Of a stretch of DNA of 53,965 bases, positions 20,124 to 51,418 are shown in pieces; the first letter of the stretch is position 1; each line of letters opens with the position of its first letter. Both the position numbers and the translations under genes were made by a program. A model generated the notes under the pieces. That model worked only from the letters and a program-made list of their open reading frames with translations. It was not told where the DNA came from and made no database searches. Source of the stretch: Parcubacteria group bacterium Athens0714_12. Lineage in GTDB: Bacteria; Patescibacteriota; Patescibacteriia; UBA2591; VMGY01. The stretch covers positions 1-53,965 of the forward strand of contig VMGY01000002.1 in the NCBI GenBank assembly GCA_007378955.1, written 5' to 3'.

Positions 20124-21968
20124 TTACTTCTTTACTTCTTCAAAGTCCCCTTCCGTTGGCTCGTCATTTTTCTTTTCCTCTTTCTTTTCATCTTTCTTCC
20201 CTTCGCTTTTCGGCGTTTCCTGCTGTTTGTATAATTCCGCGCCGATTTTCTGGATTGCCTGATTCGTCTCATCCATTACTTTTTTAATCGCTTCGCTGTC
20301 ATTCTCGTTTTTAACTTTTTTAAGTTCAGCCACTTTGTCTTTAATCTGTTTTTTATCTTCTGCTTTTATTTTATCACCCGCGTCCTTAATTGTCTTCTCG
20401 CAAGTATAAATCAAACCGTCCGCCTGATTTCTAATATCTATCAAATCTTTTTTCTTTCTGTCTTCAGCGGCAAATTGCTCGGCTTGCTGTTTCATTTTTT
20501 CAATTTCCTCTTTGGATAAGGCCGAGGAATCTTTAATCGTGATGTGCTGGGTTTTATTTGTCGCTTTATCTTTGGCGATCACTTTCAAAATGCCATTAGC
20601 GTCAATATCAAATTCAACCTCTATCTGGGGAATGCCGCGAGTTGACGGCGGAATACCATCTAAAACAAATCTGCCCAAAGTGCGGTTATCGGAAGCCATC
20701 GGCCTTTCCCCTTGCAAAACATGGATTTCCACGGAAGTCTGGTTATCCGCCGCGGTGGAAAAAACCTGGCTTTTAGAAGTGGGAATAGTCGCGTTTCTTT
20801 CTATTAAAGCCGTCATCACGCCGCCTAAAGTTTCAATGCCCAAAGTCAAAGGCGTCACATCAAGCAATAAAACATCTTTTACTTCTCCGCCTAAAACTCC
20901 TCCTTGAATCGCCGCACCCATCGCCACGCATTCCATCGGATCAACGCCGCGTTCAATTTTTCTGCCGAAATAATCTTCAATGAATTTTTGGACAATCGGC
21001 ATTCTGGTCGGACCGCCGACTAAAATAATTTTTTCAATTTCTCGCGGACCGAGTTTGGCGTCTTTCAAAGCGTTTTCTACCGGCTGGCGGCATTTCTCAA
21101 TAATCGGCTTAGCCAATTCCTCTAATTTGGTTCTGGTTATTTTTATTAAAAGATGTTTAGGCCCTTCTTTAGTCGCGGTAATAAAAGGCAGATTAATTTC
21201 TGTTTCTAAGGCGGATGAAAGTTCAATCTTGGCTTTTTCCGCCGCCTCTCTCAAGCGCTGGGTGGCCATATTATCTTTTTTTAAATCTATGCCCGTATCT
21301 TTTTTAAATTCTTCTTCTAAATATTCAATTAAAAAATTATCTATGTCCGTGCCGCCTAATTGCGTGTCGCCGCTCGTGGAAATCACTTCAAAAACACCGG
21401 CGCCGAAATTCATAATCGTCACGTCTAAAGTGCCGCCGCCCAAATCAAAAACCAAAACCTGCTGGTTTTTTTCCTTAACCTTGTCCAATCCGTAAGCCAA
21501 GCTCGCCGCTGTCGGTTCGTTGACAATCCTAATTACTTCCAAACCGGCAATCGCGCCCGCGTCTTTGGTTGCTTGCCTTTGCGTATCATTAAAATAAGCC
21601 GGTACGGTAATGACCGCTTTTTCCACCCTGTCACCTAAATACGCTTCTGAATCTCTTTTAATTTTTTGCAAAAGAAAAGCGGAAATTTGTTGGGGCGTAT
21701 ATTCTTTGCCGAAAACTTTATATTTAAAATCAGTGCCCATTTTTCTTTTAAAAGCGTACAAAGTGCCTTCTGGGTTAGCGACTGCCTGCCTTCTGGCCGC
21801 TTCGCCGATTAAAAGCTCTCCATCTTTAGTAAAAGCGACATAAGAAGGAAACGCTTTTCCTCCGACTAAAGTTGTTCCTTCGGCTGAAGGAATCATTTTT
21901 GGTTTTCCGCCTTCCATATAAGAACTGGCGGAATTTGATGTTCCTAAATCAATACCGATTATTTTCAT
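20124..21968 (-). CDS. dnaK: Chaperone DnaK (Hsp70)
   Basis: [37 protein letters not shown]. Confidence 0.98.
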
Positions 21969-22059
21969 AATATTTTGCCTTTCTAACTCGTGCTTTAATT
22001 TATAAACACGATATTAATTATTTATAATAATTACTTTGAATTACGAAATAACGGTTTCA

Positions 22060-22131
22060 AGGGAGGTAGCTATGCCTTTTTTGCAGACGCGGCGATTAGT
22101 CCGCGCGCAAAAAAAGCATATCTACCTCCCT
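22060..22131. repeat. 72-bp imperfect hairpin between grpE and dnaK
   Basis: agggaggtagctatgc...gcatatctacctccct with inner stems. Confidence 0.7.
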
Positions 22132-22137
22132 AATTGT

Positions 22138-22650
22138 TCATTCACTAATAATCACTTTTGCCGGTTTAATCACTTCTCCATTCATTGTATAGCCCGGCTG
22201 AATTTCTTTAATTATGGCGCCTTTATCGCTTCCTTCCGATTTTTCTTTCGCTATTGCTTCGTGCTTTTGTAAATCAAATTTTTCGCCGACTGTTTTTATT
22301 TCTGCCACGCCCAAGCTTTTAAGCAAATTTTTAAATTGTTCTTTAATCTGGATTATCCCCTTGGACCATTCTGATTTTTTTTCTTCTTCTGAAATATGGT
22401 TCACCGCTTGTTTAAAATGGTCGTAAATTTCCAGAAACCGCAAAATTAATCCCGCGTGGGCGAATTTAATCCAATTTTCTTTGTCTTTTTTTATCTCTTT
22501 TTCCCGATTGGCGTAATCAGCCTGCGCCCTTTTCCAGCCGTTTAAATATTCTTCAACTTTCTTTTTTTCTTCCTCCAATTCTTTTTTTAATTTTTCTATC
22601 TCTTTATCTTCCATCGCTTTAGGGAAAGAAGATTTGTTTTTTGTGTCCAT
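22138..22650 (-). CDS. grpE: Nucleotide exchange factor GrpE
   Basis: WKRAQADYAN, GEKFDLQKHEA, QPGYTMNGEVIKPAKV. Confidence 0.95.
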   Translation of the reverse strand: MDTKNKSSFPKAMEDKEIEKLKKELEEEKKKVEEYLNGWKRAQADYANREKEIKKDKENWIKFAHAGLILRFLEIYDHFKQAVNHISEEEKKSEWSKGIIQIKEQFKNLLKSLGVAEIKTVGEKFDLQKHEAIAKEKSEGSDKGAIIKEIQPGYTMNGEVIKPAKVIISE

Positions 22651-22662
22651 TTGTTATTTATT

Positions 22663-22823
22663 AGACCTGCTGCGCAATAATCTTTTCTGCTGCAACTTGA
22701 AATTTTGGCTGCAAATTATTCAGAACTCCTCACCTTATACTCCGTATAAAGCTTTGTCGTCCTTCATAATTTTCGCTCAAAATTTCCGTGTTTCGCGACG
22801 AAAAATTATTACGCAGCAGGTCT
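22663..22823. mobile_element. MITE-like family B, copy 1; supplies the hrcA C-terminus and stop
   Basis: TIR agacctgctgcg / cgcagcaggtct; ATT on both flanks. Confidence 0.85.
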
Positions 22824-23516
22824 ATTTAATAATTCTTTTATATATTTTAATAAAGCGAGGTTATGTTCATAATCCATCCTCATCGGTCCCAAAATGCCGA
22901 TTATTCCCTTGGAACCCTCAGGCAAGTGGTATTTGGTTATAATCATACTGCATTCCTCGTTGAAAGGATTTTTGCGGCCAACCATCACTTCCACCTCTTC
23001 GTCAATTTGAGTGAAAATATTTTCTATTTGTTCGTCAAAATGGTCGATAACTCGCGATAAATGGCTGATTAAGCCAAATTCCCTGAACTCCGGCTGGCTG
23101 AATAAATTAGTCAAGCCGGTAAAATAAACATCATGGGGCTGGGAAGAAACTAAAATTGTTCCTTCAGACGATTCGGTTAAAATTTTAGCTATTTCTTTTA
23201 ATAAAAACTGGGGCGATTTTTTAAATTGTTTTTTAACTTTTTTTAAATTGTTTTTTATTTTTTTATCTAATTCCTTTTCTTCCAAAAAATTTTCCAGATA
23301 AAAATAATAACCTTTTTCCGTCGGAATCCTGCCGGCCGAAGTATATGGATGGGTTAAATAGCCTCGTTTTTCCAATTCCGCCATTTCATTTCTAATCGTC
23401 GCCGAACTAAGTTTTAAACCATGCTTGCCGGCTAATAAATCAGAACCTACTGGTTGGCCGGTTCTAATGTGCTCTTTAATAACGCAATTTAATAAATTTT
23501 CCTCTCTTTTTTTCAT
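22809..23516 (-). CDS. hrcA: Heat-inducible repressor HrcA (short form)
   Basis: QPVGS, SSATIRNEMAELE, HPYTSAGRIPT, GILGPMRMDY. Confidence 0.95.
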   Translation of the reverse strand: MKKREENLLNCVIKEHIRTGQPVGSDLLAGKHGLKLSSATIRNEMAELEKRGYLTHPYTSAGRIPTEKGYYFYLENFLEEKELDKKIKNNLKKVKKQFKKSPQFLLKEIAKILTESSEGTILVSSQPHDVYFTGLTNLFSQPEFREFGLISHLSRVIDHFDEQIENIFTQIDEEVEVMVGRKNPFNEECSMIITKYHLPEGSKGIIGILGPMRMDYEHNLALLKYIKELLNRPAA

Positions 23517-23535
23517 ACCTCTTTAAAAACATTTT

Positions 23536-23562
23536 TTAGCACTCTCTTGCTTAAAGTGCTAA
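23536..23562. promoter_or_regulatory. CIRCE operator
   Basis: TTAGCACTC-N9-AAGTGCTAA, one mismatch to consensus, 20 bp upstream of hrcA. Confidence 0.92.
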
Positions 23563-23566
23563 TTTC

Positions 23567-23594
23567 ATTTTAGCAGAATAAAAAATCGTGTCAA
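23567..23594 (-). promoter_or_regulatory. Sigma70 promoter of the hrcA operon
   Basis: Minus strand TTGACA-N16-TAAAAT with extended TG. Confidence 0.7.
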
Positions 23595-23632
23595 CCCCGC
23601 GCCTTTTATGGACAGGCTAAAATTTTAAAAAA

Positions 23633-23663
23633 CCCTTAGCTTATTATTTTAATAAGCTAAGGG
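23633..23663 (-). terminator. Terminator after the response regulator
   Basis: cccttagcttatt / aataagctaaggg followed by a T run on the minus strand. Confidence 0.7.
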
Positions 23664-23727
23664 ATCAATTTTTAACCGCTTCATCCGTCCGCCAATTTTT
23701 CGCCCGAGTGGATTTTTTCGTTCAATT

Positions 23728-24180
23728 CTATGGTTTCTTTACGCGATGCATGCCGATAATTTTTGCCGCTGTATCTAAAACTTCTTTCGGCGTGCAATCT
23801 CGTTTAAAAATATAAGCGGCCGCTCCCATCTTTTCGCTTTTCTTTCGGTCTTGATCCGTATCTAAATTGGTAAAAACCGCGATTGGAATATTTTTTGTCT
23901 TTGGATTCTTTTTAACCGCTTCTAAATAATCATAACCTTGTTCGGCCATTAAATTAATAGCGCCTTTTTCCTCTTTCGGAATGATAATATCAAGAAAAAC
24001 TAAATCAGGTTGTTCGAATTCCGTAATTTGCAATGCTTGCCGAATATCTTTAGTTGATAAAAAATCATAGCCATTTGTTTCAAAATAATCATGATAAATA
24101 TCAATTAAATTTTTCTCATCCTCCACAAACAGAATTCGTCCTTTATTTGATCTCATTATATTGGTTATTCCTTTCCTCAT
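23728..24180 (-). CDS. Single-domain response regulator (receiver only)
   Basis: ILFVEDE, PDLVFLDIIIP (phospho-Asp), FTN, YIFK; start could also be 24156. Confidence 0.88.
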   Translation of the reverse strand: MRKGITNIMRSNKGRILFVEDEKNLIDIYHDYFETNGYDFLSTKDIRQALQITEFEQPDLVFLDIIIPKEEKGAINLMAEQGYDYLEAVKKNPKTKNIPIAVFTNLDTDQDRKKSEKMGAAAYIFKRDCTPKEVLDTAAKIIGMHRVKKP

Positions 24181-24190
24181 ATATATCAAG

Positions 24191-25387
24191 TTAAACGGGA
24201 TTATTTTTTTCAAAAACCATTATTTTATCCTTTTTAACCATTTGGTCAGCCTGTTCGCCATTAAGTTGTTGATTGCGATAAATTGGCACAGTGAAGCTAA
24301 AAGTAGAACCCTTGCCCGCGCCTTTGCTGATGCATGTCATTTCGCCATTATTACCTTCAATAATTTTTTTGGAAATGTAAAGACCTAGACCGGAACCGTC
24401 GGGGTGAAGGGAACTCGCGCCTCGACCGCGGGAAAATTTTTGAAATAATATTTTTTTGTCATCTTCGGAAATGCCGGCGCCCGTGTCAGTAACATTAATT
24501 TTAAAATATTTACTATCAATTAATTCGTAACTTATGGTAACGCCGCCTTGCTCGGTATAATAAATGGCATTATCTAAAAGATTGGAGATAACATGGGTTA
24601 TTTTTTTAGAATCACACCAGACCGGCGGTATTTTAAAGGATGGTCTACTGACGGATATGTATAGCTTGCGCTGAATCGCCAATGGCATTTTTTGCTTTTC
24701 GAGAATCAGCTTTTCAACAATGGCAGTAATATCAGTTTGGATTGGCTTCATCTCCATTTTTTCGCCCTCCAATTCATAGGCGTCCCAGAAATCTTGGACT
24801 GTTTGGGCGATTCTCTTAAAGCCGGCTTTAATGGTTTCCAATGATTTGGCAGTGTCCCAAATTTTTTCGTCCATCATAGAAAAAGCCCCTAGGACCACAG
24901 AAATCGGCGTGTTGAGCTGGTGATTAGCCACTCTTAAAAAATCCGTCTTGATATTCAATAATTCTTGAAGGTATCGGCTTTTCTCTTGGATGTCTTTGGT
25001 TTGATCGCTGACTTTATCTTTAAGGTTGTCTGTTAAATCTTTCAAGGCATCCTTGGCTTTCTTTAAAGAAAAATTAGATTTGATAATTTTCTCGGTGCTA
25101 CTGTTAAAAAAATATCCGTAGACAATAATTAAAACAAATACCACGATTACCGCCAGTAGTGAGAGTCTCTTCTCAAACAAAAGAAAAAACGAGAAAGACA
25201 AAACCAATAAAAGCAAACTGACAACTTGATATTGTAAAAATAAACACTGGTGAAATTTAAATTCACAATATTGACAACGTTTATAGGGCGCGTAATTAAG
25301 ATTTTTAACTATCCAACAATTTTTATTAAGATAATTACATCCACCGATTTTTCTTTTTCCATTTTGGCTTTTTTTGCATTCCTCCAT
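24191..25387 (-). CDS. Membrane sensor histidine kinase with Cys-rich N-terminus
   Basis: H box ANHQLNTP, N box NLLDNAI, DTGAG, GSGLGL; 6 Cys before 2 TM helices. Confidence 0.9.
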   Translation of the reverse strand: MEECKKSQNGKRKIGGCNYLNKNCWIVKNLNYAPYKRCQYCEFKFHQCLFLQYQVVSLLLLVLSFSFFLLFEKRLSLLAVIVVFVLIIVYGYFFNSSTEKIIKSNFSLKKAKDALKDLTDNLKDKVSDQTKDIQEKSRYLQELLNIKTDFLRVANHQLNTPISVVLGAFSMMDEKIWDTAKSLETIKAGFKRIAQTVQDFWDAYELEGEKMEMKPIQTDITAIVEKLILEKQKMPLAIQRKLYISVSRPSFKIPPVWCDSKKITHVISNLLDNAIYYTEQGGVTISYELIDSKYFKINVTDTGAGISEDDKKILFQKFSRGRGASSLHPDGSGLGLYISKKIIEGNNGEMTCISKGAGKGSTFSFTVPIYRNQQLNGEQADQMVKKDKIMVFEKNNPV

Positions 25388-25389
25388 AT

Positions 25390-25827
25390 TTAATGATTGC
25401 GCTGATTATAAATTAGTTTTGCTAAACAATTTTTTAAAAAAATATACATTAAAGTTGCTACGCAAAAACCGACAAAACAGGCCAAAAATATCATTAAATC
25501 AACTATCAAAAGATAAACCCAAGCGAAGTCAACAAATTTATTAAAATAAATAAGAGCAAAACCAACAAGCAGAAGTAGCCCCGTCGCGGCAGCCACGAAA
25601 TTTAATTCCCCCAATTCTTTTGGTGTCGGATTCGACTTCTTTTTAAAGATTAAAACATGAAATTGATACGGTATATTCAGCTTTAGTGAAAAGGCCCCCA
25701 AAATTGTTAAAACAGCGACCGCCAAAACCAACCATTGATTATGAATTAAAACCGCAATCAATAGCAATACCCCATAAGTCGCCCGTGAAAATCGTAAAGA
25801 ATTGTTATAGATTAAACATTGTTGCAT
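25390..25827 (-). CDS. DUF4395-like membrane protein
   Basis: About 4 TM helices, C-terminal ACFVGFCVATLMY resembling the family GxC motif. Confidence 0.6.
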   Translation of the reverse strand: MQQCLIYNNSLRFSRATYGVLLLIAVLIHNQWLVLAVAVLTILGAFSLKLNIPYQFHVLIFKKKSNPTPKELGELNFVAAATGLLLLVGFALIYFNKFVDFAWVYLLIVDLMIFLACFVGFCVATLMYIFLKNCLAKLIYNQRNH

Positions 25828-25857
25828 ATATGGATAATTTTAAATTAAAAAAATAAA

Positions 25858-27177
25858 TTAAATACATTTTTTGACAGCTCGGCACACCTTTTTTACATCT
25901 TCAATATTGTTGTAGACGCAAAAACTCAACCGACAACTGGCGGGGGGGTTTAGTCCGTAATAATGATGCGCCAACGTCGCGCAATGACAGCCAGCCCTTG
26001 ATTCTACCCCTAATTTACTTAACTCCTCGGCAATTTTAAATGGACTTTTGTCTTTACAAGTAAAAGCAACTAAAGATGTTCTATTGACAGGATTTTTTGG
26101 GCCAAAAATATTTAATGACGGCATCTCTCCTAATAATCCCAATGCTTCTCTAATCAGAGTTTGCTCATGAGACTTTATATTTTCCATCGCTTTTTTTATG
26201 TCGGACGCTTCCAGTTGTTTATTGGCCAGAAAATATTTGCGTTTTCTCGGATTGATAGCAAAATCAATTAATAATCTGATGGCCTGGGCGGAAAGAATCG
26301 TCCCTAAAATATTTGGGGTACCGGCCGTAAACTTCCAAGGAAGTGAATTATAACTAACTTTTTCTTGACTAACCATTCCTTCGGCAATCATGTCGCCGCC
26401 ATAAAGAAACGGTCTCATTTTTTCAAGCAATCCTTCTTTGGCATACAAAGCCCCAACCCCAAAAGGCGCCAGCATTTTATGGAAAGACCAAACAAAGAAA
26501 TCCACGCCCAGCTCGTTAACATTAACAAAAGTATTGGGAACAACTTGAGCGCCATCAATTAAAAGATATGACCTTGTTTCTCCATTGGGCTGGATATAGC
26601 CGCTGGAATCGGCGATGGCTTTTATTTTTTTAATCGGATTGATTGTTCCTAAAAAATTTGACGCCCCGGTGCAACAAACCAATTTAGTTCTTTGGTCTAC
26701 CAAAGATTTTAGGTGATTCAGATCAAGAACGCCGGTCTCTTTATCAAATTTGGCAATTCGGCACTCTGTATTAACGCCGAATTTCGGCAATATTTCTTTG
26801 CATAATCCGTACCAAGGAACATAGTTTGAATTATGCTCCATGAAGGTTGTGACCACATTATCTCCATTTTTGAATTCAGTCATTAAAGAGTACATGACCG
26901 AATTAATTGCTTCTGTGGCGTTTCGGTATAAAACAATATTTTTTCGCGAAGTGGCGCCGATAAATTGCGCAATCGTGTCATAAGATGATTCAAACGCTTC
27001 GGTAGTTAATAGCGAAGAGCGGGACTGGCCCCGATGGACATTATCGTACTGAACGACAAGCTTTTTCAGCAATTCTAATAATTGGACAGGGACTTGCGTG
27101 CTCGCCGCGTTATTGGAAACTATTCTTCCGGCTTTTATTGCCGGAAAAAATTTTCTTATTTTTTTGGTGTCTATCAT
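25858..27177 (-). CDS. SufS/CsdA-like PLP-dependent cysteine desulfurase
   Basis: NAAST, NVHRG, MEHNSNYVPW, DGAQ, SFHKM (PLP Lys), RAGCHCA; start 27177 or 27210. Confidence 0.88.
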   Translation of the reverse strand: MIDTKKIRKFFPAIKAGRIVSNNAASTQVPVQLLELLKKLVVQYDNVHRGQSRSSLLTTEAFESSYDTIAQFIGATSRKNIVLYRNATEAINSVMYSLMTEFKNGDNVVTTFMEHNSNYVPWYGLCKEILPKFGVNTECRIAKFDKETGVLDLNHLKSLVDQRTKLVCCTGASNFLGTINPIKKIKAIADSSGYIQPNGETRSYLLIDGAQVVPNTFVNVNELGVDFFVWSFHKMLAPFGVGALYAKEGLLEKMRPFLYGGDMIAEGMVSQEKVSYNSLPWKFTAGTPNILGTILSAQAIRLLIDFAINPRKRKYFLANKQLEASDIKKAMENIKSHEQTLIREALGLLGEMPSLNIFGPKNPVNRTSLVAFTCKDKSPFKIAEELSKLGVESRAGCHCATLAHHYYGLNPPASCRLSFCVYNNIEDVKKVCRAVKKCI

Positions 27178-27468
27178 AAGTTGATTTTTGACCAGATTAA
27201 TAGTTTTCATTTTCCCGTGTGATGTATTTATTGTATATAATACATTCTTTTATTGTTTTTTACAACAGAAACCAAAAATACCATAGGAAAACCTCTAAGG
27301 CCAAACTTCAGCGACTTTTAGATAGCTATTTAGAGCAGGATATTGAGTGAATTGAAATAAAAAGAAGCGCTTCTATTTTCGAGGCGCTCTTTGAGTGCAG
27401 TCCTTTTTTAAAAAGTCAATAAAAACGCCTTTCGGCATAGTTATAAGTTATTAGTTATAAGTTATTTT

Positions 27469-27545
27469 TGGTAGCGCCTAGGGGATTTGAACCCCTGATC
27501 TTCTGCCTGAGAAGCAGACGTCCTAGGCCACTAGACGAAGGCGCC
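27469..27545 (-). tRNA. tRNA-Glu (anticodon CTC), CCA encoded
   Basis: Cloverleaf: acceptor GGCGCCT/AGGCGCT, anticodon arm TCTGC-TTCTCAG-GCAGA, T arm AGGGG-TTCAAAT-CCCCT. Confidence 0.95.
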
Positions 27546-27643
27546 GCGATTAACTCACAACTGACAACCTATAACTAAAAACTAATAAATTACAACCGAT
27601 AACTCATAACCTGCAACTGACAACTTAAACTGATAACTGGCAA

Positions 27644-28906
27644 TTAAAAATCTTGGCGGACTAATAACTCTTTGGCTTTCAATGGTTCTGCCATTAACTC
27701 TTTTGTGATCTTTTCCATTCTCGCGCCCTGCGAACCTTTGATTAAAATTATATCTCCTTCTTTTATTCTGTCTTGAGCAAATTTACCAGCTATTTTCAAA
27801 TCTGTAAAGCTGAAAATTTTATTCTCTTCCATGCCCGCTTCTTTCGCCCCTCTGGCAATATCGCGCGCCATTTCCCCTACCGTGATCAAAGTATCAGCTA
27901 TTTGAGCCGCTTTTTTGCCAACCTCTTTATGGCCTTCTTCGGTGTAATTTCCTAATTCCAGCATATCGCCCAAAATAATTATTTTTTTACCTTCACAAGA
28001 AATCTCTTTTAAACTTTCCAAAGCAGCAATCGCGGAAAAAGGCGAAGCATTATAAGTATCATCAATAATTAAGCTATTTTTTATTCCTTGAATTAAATTC
28101 ATTCTGCCTAATGGCGGCCTGTATCGCCCCAAAGCCTCGCTGATTTCCAATAAATTCATCTTGTAAATTATTCCGACGCAAGTACTCGCCAAAGCGGCGT
28201 AAACCTGTTGTTTGCCTAAAACATAAGGAAGAAAGACAGGCATTATTTTACCCTCGCTAATCAATTTGAAGTTAATTCCTTTTATTCCATTATGCTCGCT
28301 GATAACCGCTTCCGAAGCTCTGATATCAGCTCCTTCCGAAAAGCCAAATGTATGTATCTTGGCTTTTGTCTTACTTTTCATATTATAAACCAATTGGTCG
28401 TCTAAATTTAATATCGCGTGGGCGTCGCTTTTTAAATCATTGATTAAATTTTGTTTTTCTTCGGCGATTTTTTCAATTTGTTTAAAAAACTGCAAATGAA
28501 CTTTTCCCACGCTGGTAATAATAGCTATTTTACGCGGCACAAAAGAGGTTAAATATTTTATATCCCCTATTCTGTCTGCCGCCATTTCTAAAATCAAAAT
28601 TTCGGGATAATTTTTTTTCTTATTGATAATCAAATCCAAACCATGCAAAAAAATTTTTAACCAGCCGATTAATGATTTTTTAGCGCTCTCGCATCCTAAA
28701 ACGCTCAAAGGAACGCCTATTTCATTATTATAATTTTTAATGCTTCTCCCGACCTTATCGGAAAATTTGCTTTTAAGCACGGCGTAAATCGCCTCTTTGG
28801 TTGAGGTTTTCCCCACGCTGCCGGTAATGGCGATTATTTCCGGCTGATATTTTTTTAAAACTTTAATGGCTAAAATTTTTAAAATTATTTGAATAATTTT
28901 TTTCAT
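27644..28906 (-). CDS. murF: UDP-MurNAc-tripeptide--D-Ala-D-Ala ligase
   Basis: AITGSVGKTSTKE, NNEIGVP, IDDTYNASP, LGDMLELG, IKGSQG. Confidence 0.93.
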   Translation of the reverse strand: MKKIIQIILKILAIKVLKKYQPEIIAITGSVGKTSTKEAIYAVLKSKFSDKVGRSIKNYNNEIGVPLSVLGCESAKKSLIGWLKIFLHGLDLIINKKKNYPEILILEMAADRIGDIKYLTSFVPRKIAIITSVGKVHLQFFKQIEKIAEEKQNLINDLKSDAHAILNLDDQLVYNMKSKTKAKIHTFGFSEGADIRASEAVISEHNGIKGINFKLISEGKIMPVFLPYVLGKQQVYAALASTCVGIIYKMNLLEISEALGRYRPPLGRMNLIQGIKNSLIIDDTYNASPFSAIAALESLKEISCEGKKIIILGDMLELGNYTEEGHKEVGKKAAQIADTLITVGEMARDIARGAKEAGMEENKIFSFTDLKIAGKFAQDRIKEGDIILIKGSQGARMEKITKELMAEPLKAKELLVRQDF

Positions 28907-29023
28907 AATGTACGCGCGCTAATAAATTTTATCACTAAAACAATTTACTTCTCTTGAATTATGGAATTCTCAAAAAAGTGTCATTAATTTCCCGCGCTGC
29001 CATCGCGAGGAACAGCTGAATAT

Positions 29024-29130
29024 ATCGAGGTCGAACCTCAATATATTATCGAGGTCGAACCTCGATATTTTCCTCAATATATTATCAAGGTCGAACCTCG
29101 ATATTTTCCTCAACCTCGATATTTTCCTCA
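29024..29130. repeat. Family F palindromes (ATCGAGGTCGAACCTCGAT), three copies plus a partial
   Basis: Tandem copies between ftsI and murF; another copy at 46747..46771. Confidence 0.85.
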
Positions 29131-29139
29131 GTATTTTAT

Positions 29140-30873
29140 TTATTTCTCCGGTGGAATTTGGTAATAGTTTAGCATAAACTCGGCTAATTTTCCAAATAAA
29201 GGAGCGGCGCTGCTTTCCGCCCAGGCAACATCTTTAGGGTTATCTATCTTAACCAGCATGGCAAATTTTGGGTCATCAACCGGCGCGAAACCGGCGAACG
29301 AACCAATATTTACGCCCTCCTCATAGCCGCGTCCATCTTTCTTGGGTACCTGCGCCGTGCCCGTCTTTCCCGCCACGTAATATCCTTTTACTCCGGCGTT
29401 TTTACCATGGCCATTCTCCACCACGCTCACCAACATTGCTCCTAAAGTGCTGGCTGTATTTGATGAAATAACCTCTCTGATCAATTTGGGCTTAATTTCT
29501 GAAATTTCTTCATTAGAATAAATTATTTTCTCCACTAAATAAGGTTTCATTAATTTTCCTTTGTTGGCAATCGCGGAAAAAGCGCTCACAACTTGCAATG
29601 GAGTAACGCTGATTCCTTGGCCGAAAGAAGCGGTAGCGGAATAAATTTCTTCTTTCTGGCTCAAGGAGTTTATATCTCCTTTACCTTCAACGGGAAGTTC
29701 TATGTCCGTAATTTTTCCAAAGCCGAATTTTTCCACATAATCTTTGAAAATTTTTACTCCGACTTGCCTAACCGCGAAAATAGCGCCGGTATTCAAAGAC
29801 TCTTCTAAAACTTTTATCATATTGACTGCGCCGTGTTCTTTTTTATCTGAATTTTCAATAGTATGCCCGTCTATTTTGACAAATCCCTCGTCTTGGTAAG
29901 TGGTTTGCGGCGTAACTTTTTTTTCTTCCAAAGCCGCCGCCATCGTGATGGCTTTAAAGATCGAACCGGGCTCATAAGTGTAAGAAATAGCCGGATTGGC
30001 AAATAAATTCAAATCTTTAATTTGCCCGTAATTATTAGGGTCAAAATCAGGATAATTGCAAAGGGCTAAAATCTTGCCGGTTTTCGGCTCCATAATAATA
30101 ACCGTTCCTCCGTCAGCGCCATGCTCTTGAACTGTATTTTTTAATTCTTCGCAAGTTTTATATTGGATTGTCCTTTCAAGGGTTAAAATTAAATCCGCCC
30201 CATTTTTTGCTTTTTCAAGATTATAATCCGAAAGAAAAATCAATGACCCTAAGGCGCTTCTTTTCGCCTCCAAGCTTCCCTTCTGTCCCGACAAAATTTT
30301 TTCATAATATTCTTCCAAGCCGTATTGCCCGGCCTTCCCATCGCCTTGATAGCCGATAAATCCGGTCAGCTGGCTGAAAAGATTTTTTTCCGGATAAAAT
30401 CTCTTTGTTTCCGGAATGAATTCTACGCCTTTTATTTTTAATGTTTTTATTTCTTCTACTTTTTCTTTAGCCACATAATGCTTTAAAATTTCATAAAAAT
30501 CATTTTCCTTGGACAATTTCGGCAAAATATCTTCTTTTGAAAGCTCTAAAATAGGCGCGATTGTTTCAGCTGTTTTTTCGGGTTCTTTAATATGAACCGG
30601 TACCGCAAAGACCAAATACAATTCAAGATTAGCGGCAATCGGATAAAGTTTTTCTTTTTTATCCTTAATAAATATTTTTCCGCGCGTCGGATAAAGCTCT
30701 TCGGAAAATTGCTGGCTCCCCGAAGCCAAAGCAATGTAAAAATTATGCTTTACAATCTGCAAATTAAACAAGCGGATAATTATCAAAGAATAAAAAATAA
30801 AAATCACTACGATAGGTAGTGTAAAACAATCTGAAATTTTTTTATTTTTCAGTTTTTTTTTATTAAAAATCAT
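29140..30873 (-). CDS. ftsI: Class B penicillin-binding protein (FtsI-like)
   Basis: RGKIF, YEPGSIFK (SxxK), SLN (SxN), KTGTAQ; dcw context. Confidence 0.88.
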   Translation of the reverse strand: MIFNKKKLKNKKISDCFTLPIVVIFIFYSLIIIRLFNLQIVKHNFYIALASGSQQFSEELYPTRGKIFIKDKKEKLYPIAANLELYLVFAVPVHIKEPEKTAETIAPILELSKEDILPKLSKENDFYEILKHYVAKEKVEEIKTLKIKGVEFIPETKRFYPEKNLFSQLTGFIGYQGDGKAGQYGLEEYYEKILSGQKGSLEAKRSALGSLIFLSDYNLEKAKNGADLILTLERTIQYKTCEELKNTVQEHGADGGTVIIMEPKTGKILALCNYPDFDPNNYGQIKDLNLFANPAISYTYEPGSIFKAITMAAALEEKKVTPQTTYQDEGFVKIDGHTIENSDKKEHGAVNMIKVLEESLNTGAIFAVRQVGVKIFKDYVEKFGFGKITDIELPVEGKGDINSLSQKEEIYSATASFGQGISVTPLQVVSAFSAIANKGKLMKPYLVEKIIYSNEEISEIKPKLIREVISSNTASTLGAMLVSVVENGHGKNAGVKGYYVAGKTGTAQVPKKDGRGYEEGVNIGSFAGFAPVDDPKFAMLVKIDNPKDVAWAESSAAPLFGKLAEFMLNYYQIPPEK

Positions 30874-30884
30874 CTAAATAAATT

Positions 30885-31066
30885 AGATCTGCTGCGTAAT
30901 AATTTTTCGTCGGGATCCTTCGCTTCACTCAGGACAGGCTCTGAAATTTTGGCTGCAAATTATTCAGAACTCCTCGCCTTATACTCTGTATAAAGCTTTG
31001 TCGTCCTTCATAATTTTCGCTCAAAATTTCAAGTTGCAGCAGAAAAGATTATTGCGCGGCAGGTCT
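30885..31066. mobile_element. MITE-like family B, copy 2, with nested family H hairpin at 30914..30941
   Basis: TIR agatctgctgcg / cgcggcaggtct; flanks ATT/ATC; 70-bp core near-identical to copy 1. Confidence 0.85.
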
Positions 31067-31067
31067 A

Positions 31068-31430
31068 TCATCTGCGCGCTGTTACGGAAACTGACGAAGA
31101 GATATAATCCACTTGGCCGGCCTTCACCATATTTAATTCTTTTTTAAGCTTTTCTATGTTTGACAAAGATTGTAACTCGGTCACATTCATTTCTAAATTT
31201 TTATTTTTCTGCTCAATATCATTTATTTTATCTTCCAAGCTCTTAATTTCAAACCCCTTGATCGCCAAATCATTTATCTGGAATAGATAGGTTATTGCCA
31301 ATAAAAAAACTGTGATAAATAAAAACGCGGACATTTTATGCTTAAGATTCAAATTTTTTAAAAAACCTTTTTTCGCGGGATAATAATGTTTCTTTGTATT
31401 TTTCTTGGAAAAGACAAATAAAGGAGACAT
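31068..31430 (-). CDS. ftsL: FtsL-like cell division protein
   Basis: Single TM plus coiled coil; between rsmH and ftsI. Confidence 0.7.
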   Translation of the reverse strand: MSPLFVFSKKNTKKHYYPAKKGFLKNLNLKHKMSAFLFITVFLLAITYLFQINDLAIKGFEIKSLEDKINDIEQKNKNLEMNVTELQSLSNIEKLKKELNMVKAGQVDYISSSVSVTARR

Positions 31431-31457
31431 AAAATATAATTTAATTGATAATGGGAA

Positions 31458-32402
31458 TTATAATTTCTCCGCCACTCTTAGTTTGGCGCTTCTGCCGCGC
31501 GCGTTTTCTTCAACTTCCTCTAAGCTTGGCCTGATTGGCTTTTTGGTAATTATTTTCAGACCGCTTTTTTCTTTAAAAAATCTTTTGACTATTCTGTCTT
31601 CCAAAGAATGGAAGCTAATCACCGCCAATCTTCCTTCCGGCGCTAAAATTTCAATCGCCTGGGGCAAAACTTTCCTTAAAACGCCTAATTCGTCATTAAC
31701 CGCTATCCTTAAGGCCTGAAAAACTCTGGTGGCAAAATGAATTCTTGAATGCTGGAATCTGAAAGGAACCGCTTTTTTTATAACTTCAACTAATTGGTTA
31801 GTTGTTTTAATAAAATCTGTTTTTCTTGACTCTATGATTTTTCCCGCGATTCTTTTGCTGAATCTCTCTTCTCCATATTTTTCAAAAATTTCAGCCAACT
31901 CTTCTTCTTCGTATGAATTAATTATTTTTTCAGCCGTTAAATCATCATTTAAATCAAATCTCATATCCAATGGCTCATCCCTTAAAAATGAAAAACCTCG
32001 GCCGCTTTTTTCCAATAAATCAGAACTAAGCCCTAAATCCAGCAAGATACCGTTAACCCCGTTAGAAAGCCCCGTCCCCTGTGACTCTTTATTTTTAGAA
32101 AGAGCGGTTGAGTTTGAAGATCCGCCCTTTCTAACGGGGTTAACCGGAAAAAAATTATTTTTTTCAGCGATTAATTTTAAATTAGCGAAATTTTCTTGAA
32201 CTAAAATCAAATTCTTGATTCCTTGCAATCTTTTAATCGCTTCTTTATCCAAATCAATGCCTAAAACCTTTCCTTCAGGCTCTATTTTTTTTAAAATAGC
32301 TAAACTATGCCCGCCGCCGCCAAGAGTGCAATCAATAAAATTTTGATTGGCTCGCGGATTCAAATATTCAATTATCTCTTTCAAAAGAACTGGTTTATGC
32401 AT
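31458..32402 (-). CDS. rsmH: 16S rRNA m4C1402 methyltransferase with a 29-aa insertion
   Basis: HKPVLL, DCTLGGGGHS, LLDLGLSS, RGFSF, PLDMR, FQALRIAVN, ISFHSLEDR, RSAKLR. Confidence 0.96.
   Translation of the reverse strand: MHKPVLLKEIIEYLNPRANQNFIDCTLGGGGHSLAILKKIEPEGKVLGIDLDKEAIKRLQGIKNLILVQENFANLKLIAEKNNFFPVNPVRKGGSSNSTALSKNKESQGTGLSNGVNGILLDLGLSSDLLEKSGRGFSFLRDEPLDMRFDLNDDLTAEKIINSYEEEELAEIFEKYGEERFSKRIAGKIIESRKTDFIKTTNQLVEVIKKAVPFRFQHSRIHFATRVFQALRIAVNDELGVLRKVLPQAIEILAPEGRLAVISFHSLEDRIVKRFFKEKSGLKIITKKPIRPSLEEVEENARGRSAKLRVAEKL
32057..32139. mobile_element. MITE-like family C element (83 bp) in frame in rsmH
   Basis: TIR ccccgttagaaag / ctttctaacgggg; TTAA on both sides; 83+4=87 nt. 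Confidence 0.92.
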
Positions 32403-32447
32403 TTTGTTGTTGGTTGTAAATTGTAGGTTGTTAGTTATTAGTTATCC

Positions 32448-32879
32448 CTAAGCGTTCATCTCTCCTAAAGTTTCGGCGATGTTTTCACTTTCTTCTTCCG
32501 CGCCTTGTTTATACTTTTCCCATTTTTCCTCATCCCAAATTTCCAAACGATTATACAAACCGGCAATCACTGCCTTCTTTTTTATGCCGGCGAATTTTCT
32601 TAAATAATCAGGCAAGATAACTCTTCCCTGTTTGTCTATTTCTATATCCATCGCGCCGGCTAACATAAATCTGGCAAATCCCCTGCTGTTAGATTTATTA
32701 ATTGGCAGCTTGGCTAATTTATCAGCCAATTTTTCCCACTCGCTTTGAGTGTATAAAAATAAACAATTATCCAATCCCTTAGTTACGACCGCGCCTTTTT
32801 CCAACTGATTGCGAAATTTGATTGGCACAGCCAATCTTCCTTTTTCATCAATATTGTGATGATATTCGCCGATGAACAT
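32448..32879 (-). CDS. mraZ: Division/cell wall cluster repressor MraZ
   Basis: MFIGEYHHNIDEKGRLAVP, DKQGRVILP, RLEIW. Confidence 0.97.
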   Translation of the reverse strand: MFIGEYHHNIDEKGRLAVPIKFRNQLEKGAVVTKGLDNCLFLYTQSEWEKLADKLAKLPINKSNSRGFARFMLAGAMDIEIDKQGRVILPDYLRKFAGIKKKAVIAGLYNRLEIWDEEKWEKYKQGAEEESENIAETLGEMNA

Positions 32880-37728: not shown

Positions 37729-37741
37729 TTTAGTCATAAAA

Positions 37742-37825
37742 TTAAAAATCTGCATTACCGCAGATTTAAAAGACTTTCGCCTAAATAGGATATTAAGCCT
37801 TTCAGCGCCTATTTTCTACGGCAGA
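37742..37825 (-). promoter_or_regulatory. L10 ribosomal protein leader RNA with attenuator hairpin
   Basis: Minus strand CCGTAGAAAATAGG...TTAATATCCTATTTAGG (L10-leader pattern) then AAATCTGC-GGTAAT-GCAGATTTTT. Confidence 0.8.
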
Positions 37826-37833
37826 TATTGATT

Positions 37834-38008
37834 GAGATGGTTGCAAAACTGCTTCGGCTGCAATTTGCTATTTTCAGCCAATGCTTCGTCAAGCTGCGTA
37901 AAATGATTTTCGCCGTAATTCTATTACGGTTCAAATCATTTTACTTGCTTTCCTCGCCTTGGCTGAAACTATCTAAATTTCGCGACAAAACAGTTTTGCA
38001 ACCATCTC
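37834..38008. mobile_element. MITE-like family A, complete (175 bp)
   Basis: 18-bp perfect TIR gagatggttgcaaaactg / cagttttgcaaccatctc; ATT on both flanks. Confidence 0.9.
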
Positions 38009-51235: not shown

Positions 51236-51418
51236 GTCATTGCGAAAATCCTCGGGATTGCGGAGCCTGTCCTGAGTGAAGCGAAAGGATCTTCCTGCTG
51301 CCTCCTCGCAATGACAAACAAGAGTGTGTCATTGCGAGGAGCGGAACGCAGTGGAGCGACGCGGCAATCCCGTTTCAATTTGTCATTGCGAGGAGCTATC
51401 AGGCGGCGCGGCAATCCC
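51236..51418. repeat. Family D cluster with nested family H hairpin; supplies the stop codon of the upstream large gene
   Basis: gagcctgtcctgagtgaagcgaaaggatc inside a D unit; TGA at 51383..51385 lies in caatgac. Confidence 0.88.

Follow-up and report, generated by a model that had tools for sequence, protein, structure and literature searches.

The stretch of DNA analyzed here (positions 1 to 53,965 of contig VMGY01000002.1, 53,965 nucleotides in all; hereafter the window) belongs to the assembly GCA_007378955.1 of Parcubacteria group bacterium Athens0714_12 and carries two copies of a short, non-coding, quasi-palindromic element, a miniature inverted-repeat transposable element (MITE). Copy 1 lies in the hrcA-grpE-dnaK operon, between hrcA and grpE, and copy 2 lies in the mraZ-mraW-ftsL-ftsI cluster, with mraW and mraZ further upstream. 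Each copy consists of a 70-bp core held between two different arms, and in copy 2 the core sits the other way round relative to those arms. An earlier note, made from the sequence of the window, read the pair as flip/flop isomers of one family. We compared the two copies base by base, took a census of core orientation in public sequence collections and weighed the ways in which copy 2 could have arisen.

Results

Anatomy of the two copies

Copy 1 has the layout that we call canonical (Table 1). Its termini form a perfect 12-bp inverted repeat (AGACCTGCTGCG / CGCAGCAGGTCT) and it is flanked by an ATT / ATT direct repeat (22660-22662, 22824-26). The family profile matches it on the minus strand with 136.5 bits (nhmmer), and in folding predictions the minus strand reaches -73 kcal/mol and the plus strand -49 kcal/mol. 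The flanks of copy 2 are ATT / ATC, an imperfect duplication.

The two cores are near-identical on the same strand, as the earlier note had stated: they agree at 68 of 70 positions, compared with 46 of 70 when one of them is reverse complemented. The arms, by contrast with the cores, were said to be swapped and reverse complemented throughout. This holds for the right arm of copy 2, which is the reverse complement of copy 1 arm A at 35 of 36 positions, and for the first 28 nt of its left arm, which are the reverse complement of arm B at 27 of 28; it does not hold for the remaining 9 nt of arm B (CGAAACACG). When the arms are taken as the reference, the core of copy 2 agrees with the reverse complement of the canonical core at 68 of 70 positions. 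A perfect 9-bp inverted repeat, GAAATTTTG / CAAAATTTC, marks both ends of the inverted segment exactly. The switch points had been placed at this repeat, and the placement fits the anatomy. From a reading of the sequence, the pair appears to be the longest perfect internal inverted repeat of the element.

The two junctions of the inverted segment differ. The right junction is seamless, and at the left junction the 9 nt of arm B that should stand beside the inner repeat are lost and 30 nt are gained. Within this foreign filler, a stretch of 23 nt recurs without mismatch in a GC-rich dispersed repeat that occupies three other loci (Table 1). Such a loss and gain of bases mean that the change was non-conservative; a conservative site-specific recombinase would not act in this way.

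Census of core orientation

The census query was the arm-B pattern, which is present in both isomers, and two public collections were scanned with it. The genome collection gave 57 pattern loci and the metagenome collection 78; with the three near-identical copies of the source genome these amount to 138. The viral contig collection held no match to the arm-B pattern. A second terminus was found for 103 of the 138 matches, and 90 of these are distinct insertions. Judged by core motifs, 74 of the 90 are canonical and one, copy 2, is inverted; eight have divergent cores in which the core motifs are absent, and seven are arms-only forms of 54-105 bp. Among the 35 matches without a second terminus, canonical core motifs stand beside arm B in 17 and inverted ones in none; the remaining 18 comprise stubs at contig ends, single arms that are truncated, and chance matches from unrelated phyla.

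Polarity was also assessed without recourse to motifs, by folding the inner part and the paired outer arms on each strand in 73 distinct full-length sequences. These per-strand folding energies were used in place of half-to-half alignment: signing of mismatches (G.T versus A.C) by aligning the left half with the right half was rejected as too noisy, with many apparent transversions. The favoured strand agrees in most sequences, in 69 of 73 for the outer arms and 67 of 73 for the inner part. By this measure copy 2 stands furthest apart and is the one strongly discordant element, with +15.6 kcal/mol for the outer arms and -14.4 kcal/mol for the inner part. Weaker discordances (outer/inner) are seen in L040 (+11.7/-3.3), L056 (+9.8/-4.1), L112 (+9.3/-1.2) and L059 (+9.7/-0.1). 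The outer values of L045, L049 and L050 are slightly negative, and in L110, which was matched on the other strand, both parts are negative. As far as can be read from their sequences, L040 and L056 seem to retain the canonical order, with GGCT...CTCCTC on the arm-A side and CGTCG...AGCTC on the arm-B side.

The family has a single fixed internal polarity and copy 2 is the lone exception; it is therefore a lone rearranged copy among uniform ones. The claim that the family exists as flip/flop isomers did not survive this tabulation, which the earlier note had itself proposed: with 74 canonical insertions and a single inverted one among the 90, the outcome is the one that the note had named as refuting its reading.

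Structure and spread of the family

The family is a non-coding, quasi-palindromic MITE of about 160 bp that is widespread in Patescibacteria and common in ultra-small groundwater bacteria; public records with the same element are labelled Patescibacteria or Parcubacteria. Its members end in 12-bp inverted repeats (AGACCTGCTGCG...), are flanked by a 3-bp target duplication and enclose a hairpin core that varies, and their subterminal arms are non-identical (arm A, ...TTTTCTGCTGCAA; arm B, TTTCGCGACGAAAAATTAT...). Elements measure 158-187 bp, and one genome holds about 23 copies. The cores differ between subfamilies, whereas the subterminal arms are conserved. No Rfam family matches either copy, in a scan of the whole window at gathering scores and of positions 22600-22900 at E-values up to 1. 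We found no description of the family in literature searches, in Rfam or in a 2024 MITE survey (PMC11602168), a text in which the words Patescibacteria, Parcubacteria and Candidate Phyla are absent.

The consensus fold of 57 aligned copies is one long hairpin. At 35 of its 56 predicted pairs both sides have changed in at least one copy with pairing kept, and the inner repeat belongs to a continuous stem and co-varies with the remainder of the hairpin. The two strands do not fold equally well. The B'->A' strand has the more stable fold in 71 of the 73 distinct full-length copies (mean -72.1 versus -54.8 kcal/mol), and it has 5.0 G.U pairs, compared with 1.5 on the other strand; the outer-arm part of this bias is affected by the search pattern, which fixes arm B. 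The inner pairs are untouched by the pattern and have 77 G.U cells against 29 A.C cells, a count that comes from a structure predicted on the same strand, which favours G.U, and from related copies that are not independent events.

Insertion sites also show a preference. In 55 of 89 distinct insertions the element has the same 3 bp on either side, and in 38 of them this triplet is TAT. At 41 of the 89 the arm-B end abuts TATG, compared with two that have CATA at the arm-A end, and 26 of the 41 abutting ATGs start an open reading frame (ORF) that runs for 60 codons or more inside the 300-nt flank. In these docked copies the terminal ...GAGGTCT lies 4 nt before the ATG. The family is strongly oriented to start codons that lie downstream, and the strand carried in the message is the one that folds less well. 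The window copies are not docked on a start codon, the ATGs being 11-12 nt away. Two solo arm-B terminal pieces of about 35 nt (L101 and L107) stand directly before a TATG start codon, with unrelated sequence upstream, and here the element end seems to survive as the 5' leader of the gene.

The inner region is unstable, as the seven arms-only derivatives have differing deletion end points (L043/L128, L070, L099/L146, L152, L141, L060 and L109). In several copies a small palindrome has been inserted close to where the core meets arm B, and L028, L061/L137, L114, L059 and L081 have small palindromes nested within the hairpin.

Other copies in the source genome

The source genome is a metagenome-assembled genome of 827 kb in 27 contigs, of which the window is contig 7; it has 35% GC and is rated 100% complete, and its relatives have genomes of 0.5-1.3 Mb. 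The region is present in three groundwater metagenome DNA runs of one study, and the run search listed no RNA run that contains it. Three near-identical cores (97-99% identity) occur in the genome, namely those of copies 1 and 2 and of a third copy at C2:73959-74119 (94%), which has the canonical layout and imperfect flanks (TAT/TTA). A divergent full copy at C18:36621-36781 also has the canonical layout and is flanked by AAT/AAT. Because there is a near-identical third copy and a divergent fourth, the similarity of the window copies is not due to chance. The four copies lie in differing contexts (hrcA/grpE; ftsL/ftsI; a coupling-ATPase locus; a Pyr_redox_2 oxidoreductase beside LemA), and as dispersed non-coding insertions in unrelated contexts they qualify as a MITE. 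The core sequence has three matches in the genome, all inside elements and none without arms. In the three canonical copies the stronger-folding strand is in the message, and the next start codon is 12-42 nt away. A truncated copy at C8:69431-69489, comprising arm A, the inner repeat and the first core nucleotides, extends over the stop codon at the 3' end of an ORF on the minus strand (69484-70200).

The genome also contains about 12 copies of a sister family, which has other termini (GAGATGGTTACAAAAC) and a different core, and has the subterminal motifs TTTCGTNGCGAAA and TTGCAGCAGAAA in common with the family studied here. Each of these copies matches the canonical-phase profile in one piece (nhmmer). 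The member in the window (Table 1) lies directly upstream of an Rfam L10 leader match at 37734-37839 (-); further sister-family loci include C18:37404-37550 and C27:20639-20774.

Search for a parent element

In two element-rich genomes, the distance between paired termini is about 140-250 bp and in most cases about 183 bp; several termini lack a partner or lie at contig ends. No pair at insertion-sequence distance was found in these two genomes, draft assemblies that may miss a full-length element. GIY-YIG genes framed by the AGACCT-type termini of this family were found at none of 13 loci inspected (out of 17 matches in five element-rich genomes), and none of the four small GIY-YIG ORFs of the source genome is framed in this way. 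At one GIY-YIG locus an element copy merely lies beside a degraded gene, and one element-rich genome is without any GIY-YIG match. At least two of the four source-genome ORFs lie between inverted arms of their own, and the one at C15:13404 has TATG on both sides.

Gene context

The 3' end of hrcA reaches into copy 1, with its last 15 nt and TAA stop inside arm B. Copy 2 is separated by 1 nt from the TGA stop of the ftsL/DivIC-like gene, and the ATG of the ftsI-type gene lies 11 nt beyond its other end. The 12 ORFs scanned around the two copies (20124-32879) comprise chaperone, two-component, cysteine-desulfurase-type, Mur ligase and cell-division genes, with no recombinase gene among them; the genome has four large serine and two tyrosine recombinases, all on other contigs. 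A tRNA gene (27472-27545, minus strand) lies in the 8-kb stretch separating the copies, between the cysteine-desulfurase-type and Mur ligase genes. Promoter or terminator activity of the core, which the earlier note had suggested as a check, found no backing in consensus scans: these gave no site in or adjoining either copy, and the scanned regions did not exceed shuffle expectation, with the exception of one unrelated terminator-like hairpin at 30821-30805.

Table 1. Features discussed in the text. Positions are those of the window unless a contig handle (C) precedes them.
Feature	Position	Strand	Description
Copy 1	22663-22823	+	Canonical layout: arm A, GAAATTTTG, 70-bp core, CAAAATTTC, arm B
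Copy 1, arm A	22663-22698		AGACCTGCTGCGCAATAATCTTTTCTGCTGCAACTT
Copy 1, inner repeat	22699-22707		GAAATTTTG
Copy 1, core	22708-22777		70 bp
Copy 1, inner repeat	22778-22786		CAAAATTTC
Copy 1, arm B	22787-22823		CGTGTTTCGCGACGAAAAATTATTACGCAGCAGGTCT
Copy 2	30885-31066	+	Rearranged: arm B', filler, GAAATTTTG, core, CAAAATTTC, arm A'
Copy 2, arm B'	30885-30912
Copy 2, foreign filler	30913-30942	+	30 bp, at left inversion junction
Copy 2, inner repeat	30943-30951		GAAATTTTG
Copy 2, core	30952-31021	+	Orientation as in copy 1
Copy 2, inner repeat	31022-31030		CAAAATTTC
Copy 2, arm A'	31031-31066
23-nt filler matches	51263-51285; C23:6462-6484; C12:13545-13567
GC-rich dispersed repeat	51257-51291; C23:6456-6490; C12:13539-13573	- (window locus)	...TGTCATTGCGAGGAGGCAGCAGGAAGATCCTTTCGCTTCACTCAGGACAGGCTCCGCAATCCCG...
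Sister-family member	37849-37992	-	nhmmer profile positions 19-144; termini GAGATGGTTGCAAAAC...; canonical phase
grpE	22138-22650	-	Pfam GrpE, E 5.7e-41; downstream of copy 1, ATG 12 nt beyond arm A end
hrcA	22809-23516	-	Pfam HrcA, E 4.5e-22; upstream of copy 1
ftsI-type penicillin-binding protein gene	29140-30873	-	Pfam Transpeptidase, E 2.9e-77, and PBP_dimer; downstream of copy 2
ftsL/DivIC-like gene	31068-31430	-	Pfam DivIC, E 1.6e-06, just under the curated cut-off; upstream of copy 2
Four small GIY-YIG ORFs	C27:916-1131; C5:2101-2322; C15:13404-13616; C15:41969-42175		Open frames of 103-121 aa

Discussion

Following insertion of the element, or while it was being copied, copy 2 probably arose by a single in-place inversion at the 9-bp inner repeat, through an error of replication or repair at the hairpin. 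We propose that the central segment between GAAATTTTG and CAAAATTTC was turned around in place, and the most likely cause would be that, during replication, the template was switched between strands or a break was repaired at the hairpin or cruciform. The filler of 30 bp could have entered in the same event or in a separate (nested) insertion. The sequences show the anatomy, the single phase shared by the remaining copies and a left junction that was not conserved; the mechanism and its timing are inferred, and the ancestral phase is taken from the 74 canonical copies. There is a published precedent in which template switching between strands can turn a loop around where it stands, between stems that pair perfectly (PMC8794818). 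The earlier note had offered site-specific inversion and hairpin-mediated template switching side by side. The latter fits the anatomy, as a one-off event. Nothing points to the former, nor to the rolling-hairpin replication of which the note was reminded: the junction is not conservative and no recombinase is among the 12 ORFs scanned nearby.

Events involving two copies were considered and set aside. A large chromosomal inversion between the two window copies is at odds with the genes from dnaK to mraZ, which are all still on one strand. An exchange at the inner repeats of two copies, whether direct or inverted, should on our reasoning leave only unchanged elements or A...A' and B'...B chimeras. 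Since such exchanges do not give arm B', core and arm A' beside an unchanged partner, only an event within one element yields the observed order.

Several points weigh against an in-place inversion by replication or repair error. The census contains one event only, so the mechanism is not distinguishable from its product. The inverted loops reported in PMC8794818 measure 4-8 nt, whereas copy 2 inverts 70 nt. Within the near-identical subfamily there are three full copies, one of which is inverted, and a recurrent process specific to this lineage is possible. The filler may be an independent nested insertion, as other copies have palindromic inserts at a similar place. Finally, the copy-2 junctions and the single isomer at each locus are those of the assembled sequence.

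Another view of the same event is that the family is copied through a single-stranded hairpin stage and that copy 2 preserves the trace of a hairpin-primed strand switch during copying. Such a stage would account for the better folding of one strand in 71 of 73 copies, and the strand asymmetry might hint at a single-stranded stage of either DNA or RNA; even so, we consider this reading as a whole very unlikely. Were it true, inverted cores would be born at transposition and could recur, and the change would alter which strand of the core hairpin is present in the ftsI messenger.

The product of an inversion could also have been reached from a different starting point. In ectopic gene conversion, a canonical copy 2 inserted in the opposite orientation would have had its core overwritten by another copy aligned in the wrong register, for example by copy 1, which is 8 kb away; the tract would end in the 9-bp repeats, as the quasi-palindrome allows. 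The window copies do align in both registers (89% identity across the core plus one arm when read on the same strand, 70% across the full element when read on opposite strands), the three cores are 97-99% identical, and the outcome would be the same as that of an inversion. The conversion tract, however, must end within 9 bp of homology on both sides, the 30-bp filler is left unexplained, and one base unique to the copy-2 core (the T in ACTCTGT) is absent from both possible donors. Gene conversion is thus unlikely. A related idea treats the core as a small mobile element in its own right, with GAAATTTTG and CAAAATTTC as its termini, that enters arms-only elements in either orientation. Arms-only forms do exist (7 of 90 distinct insertions, for example at 54-75 bp), and cores vary between subfamilies while the arms are conserved. 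Independent insertion nevertheless predicts that both orientations should be common, and 74 of 75 are alike; the source genome has no core outside an element, the inner repeat co-varies as part of a continuous stem, and the end points of the arms-only forms differ, as deletions would give. We regard a separately mobile core as highly improbable.

In a programmed or recurrent flip/flop, the core would switch at the 9-bp repeats by means of a recombinase or by rolling-hairpin-like transfer, and both isomers would be normal states. In its favour, the segment is bounded exactly by a perfect inverted repeat, recombinases are encoded elsewhere in the genome, and a review states that Correia elements are able to invert (PMC10969869). 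In addition, all four source-genome copies show the same core strand to the flanking mRNA, an agreement with a chance of 1 in 8. Against this, the core is inverted in 1 of 75 classifiable distinct insertions and in 0 of 35 partial matches, the junction is not conservative, the 12 ORFs around the copies include no recombinase, and the elements lie inside chromosomal operons and not at replicon ends. The wider family presents the opposite core strand towards the downstream gene at 41 of 89 sites, so no single orientation is required. A switching system is therefore very unlikely to account for copy 2. An assembly or library artefact, in which a chimeric read or a mis-threaded repeat made the copy-2 arrangement, also has to be weighed, since the source is a 27-contig metagenome-assembled genome, the element is a repeated quasi-palindrome and related copies are often at contig ends in other assemblies. 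A de Bruijn assembler should nonetheless be incapable of making two new junctions (9 bp plus unique sequence) that are absent from the reads, and because the junction sequences should exist in reads an artefact is improbable to a marked degree. Both flanks of copy 2 also run into the conserved operon expected there (mraZ-mraW-ftsL / ftsI-mur ligase). Of the 31-mers sampled from 22000-31500, three runs of one study contain 88-98%, although two of these runs may represent the source sample and the words are not specific to the junctions.

A flip/flop system, if true, would indicate that bacteria with very small genomes possess a new mechanism of inversion or hairpin replication. As the census shows a single rearrangement, the case is mainly one of a clean, natural 70-bp in-place inversion at a short inverted repeat within a hairpin element. 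The by-products of the analysis concern the family itself: its wide occurrence in Patescibacteria, its fixed polarity, its strand-biased folding and its orientation to downstream start codons.

Flip/flop hairpin structures in parvoviruses and poxviruses lie at the ends of linear genomes, and their isomers are about equally abundant. The window copies resemble them in having an asymmetric inner palindrome in two orientations relative to an outer stem; the family differs in lying inside chromosomal operons and in an isomer ratio of 74 to 1. With the invertible segments of the Hin/Gin, fimS and Bacteroides inverton systems, copy 2 shares a segment flanked by short inverted repeats, but there is no invertase gene among the ORFs near it, its junction is not conservative and the segment has no promoter-like site in consensus scans. 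A closer parallel in form is provided by template-switch loop inversions, in which, as described by Monttinen and Loytynoja (2022, PMC8794818), a segment between pairing repeats is reverse complemented in a single lineage with the stem left intact, as in copy 2; the differences are the length of the segment (70 nt versus the 4-8 nt reported in that study) and the 30-bp filler at one junction.

The family as a whole is best compared with Correia elements (CREE, NEMIS) of Neisseria and with ERIC/IRU elements. All are short, non-coding and multi-copy, with terminal inverted repeats and a short target duplication, and Correia- and ERIC-type MITEs, like the family described here, occupy transcribed intergenic sites beside gene starts and fold into a long hairpin. 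According to a review (PMC10969869, citing Elbeyioglu et al. 2017), Correia elements can invert, possibly altering expression. In copy 2, unlike in CREE, the inverted piece is bounded by an internal 9-bp repeat and not by the terminal repeats, and one copy only is affected. There is no sequence relationship between the family and Correia- or ERIC-type MITEs, and the host phylum, Patescibacteria, is a different one. The element works like these hairpin MITEs of other bacteria.

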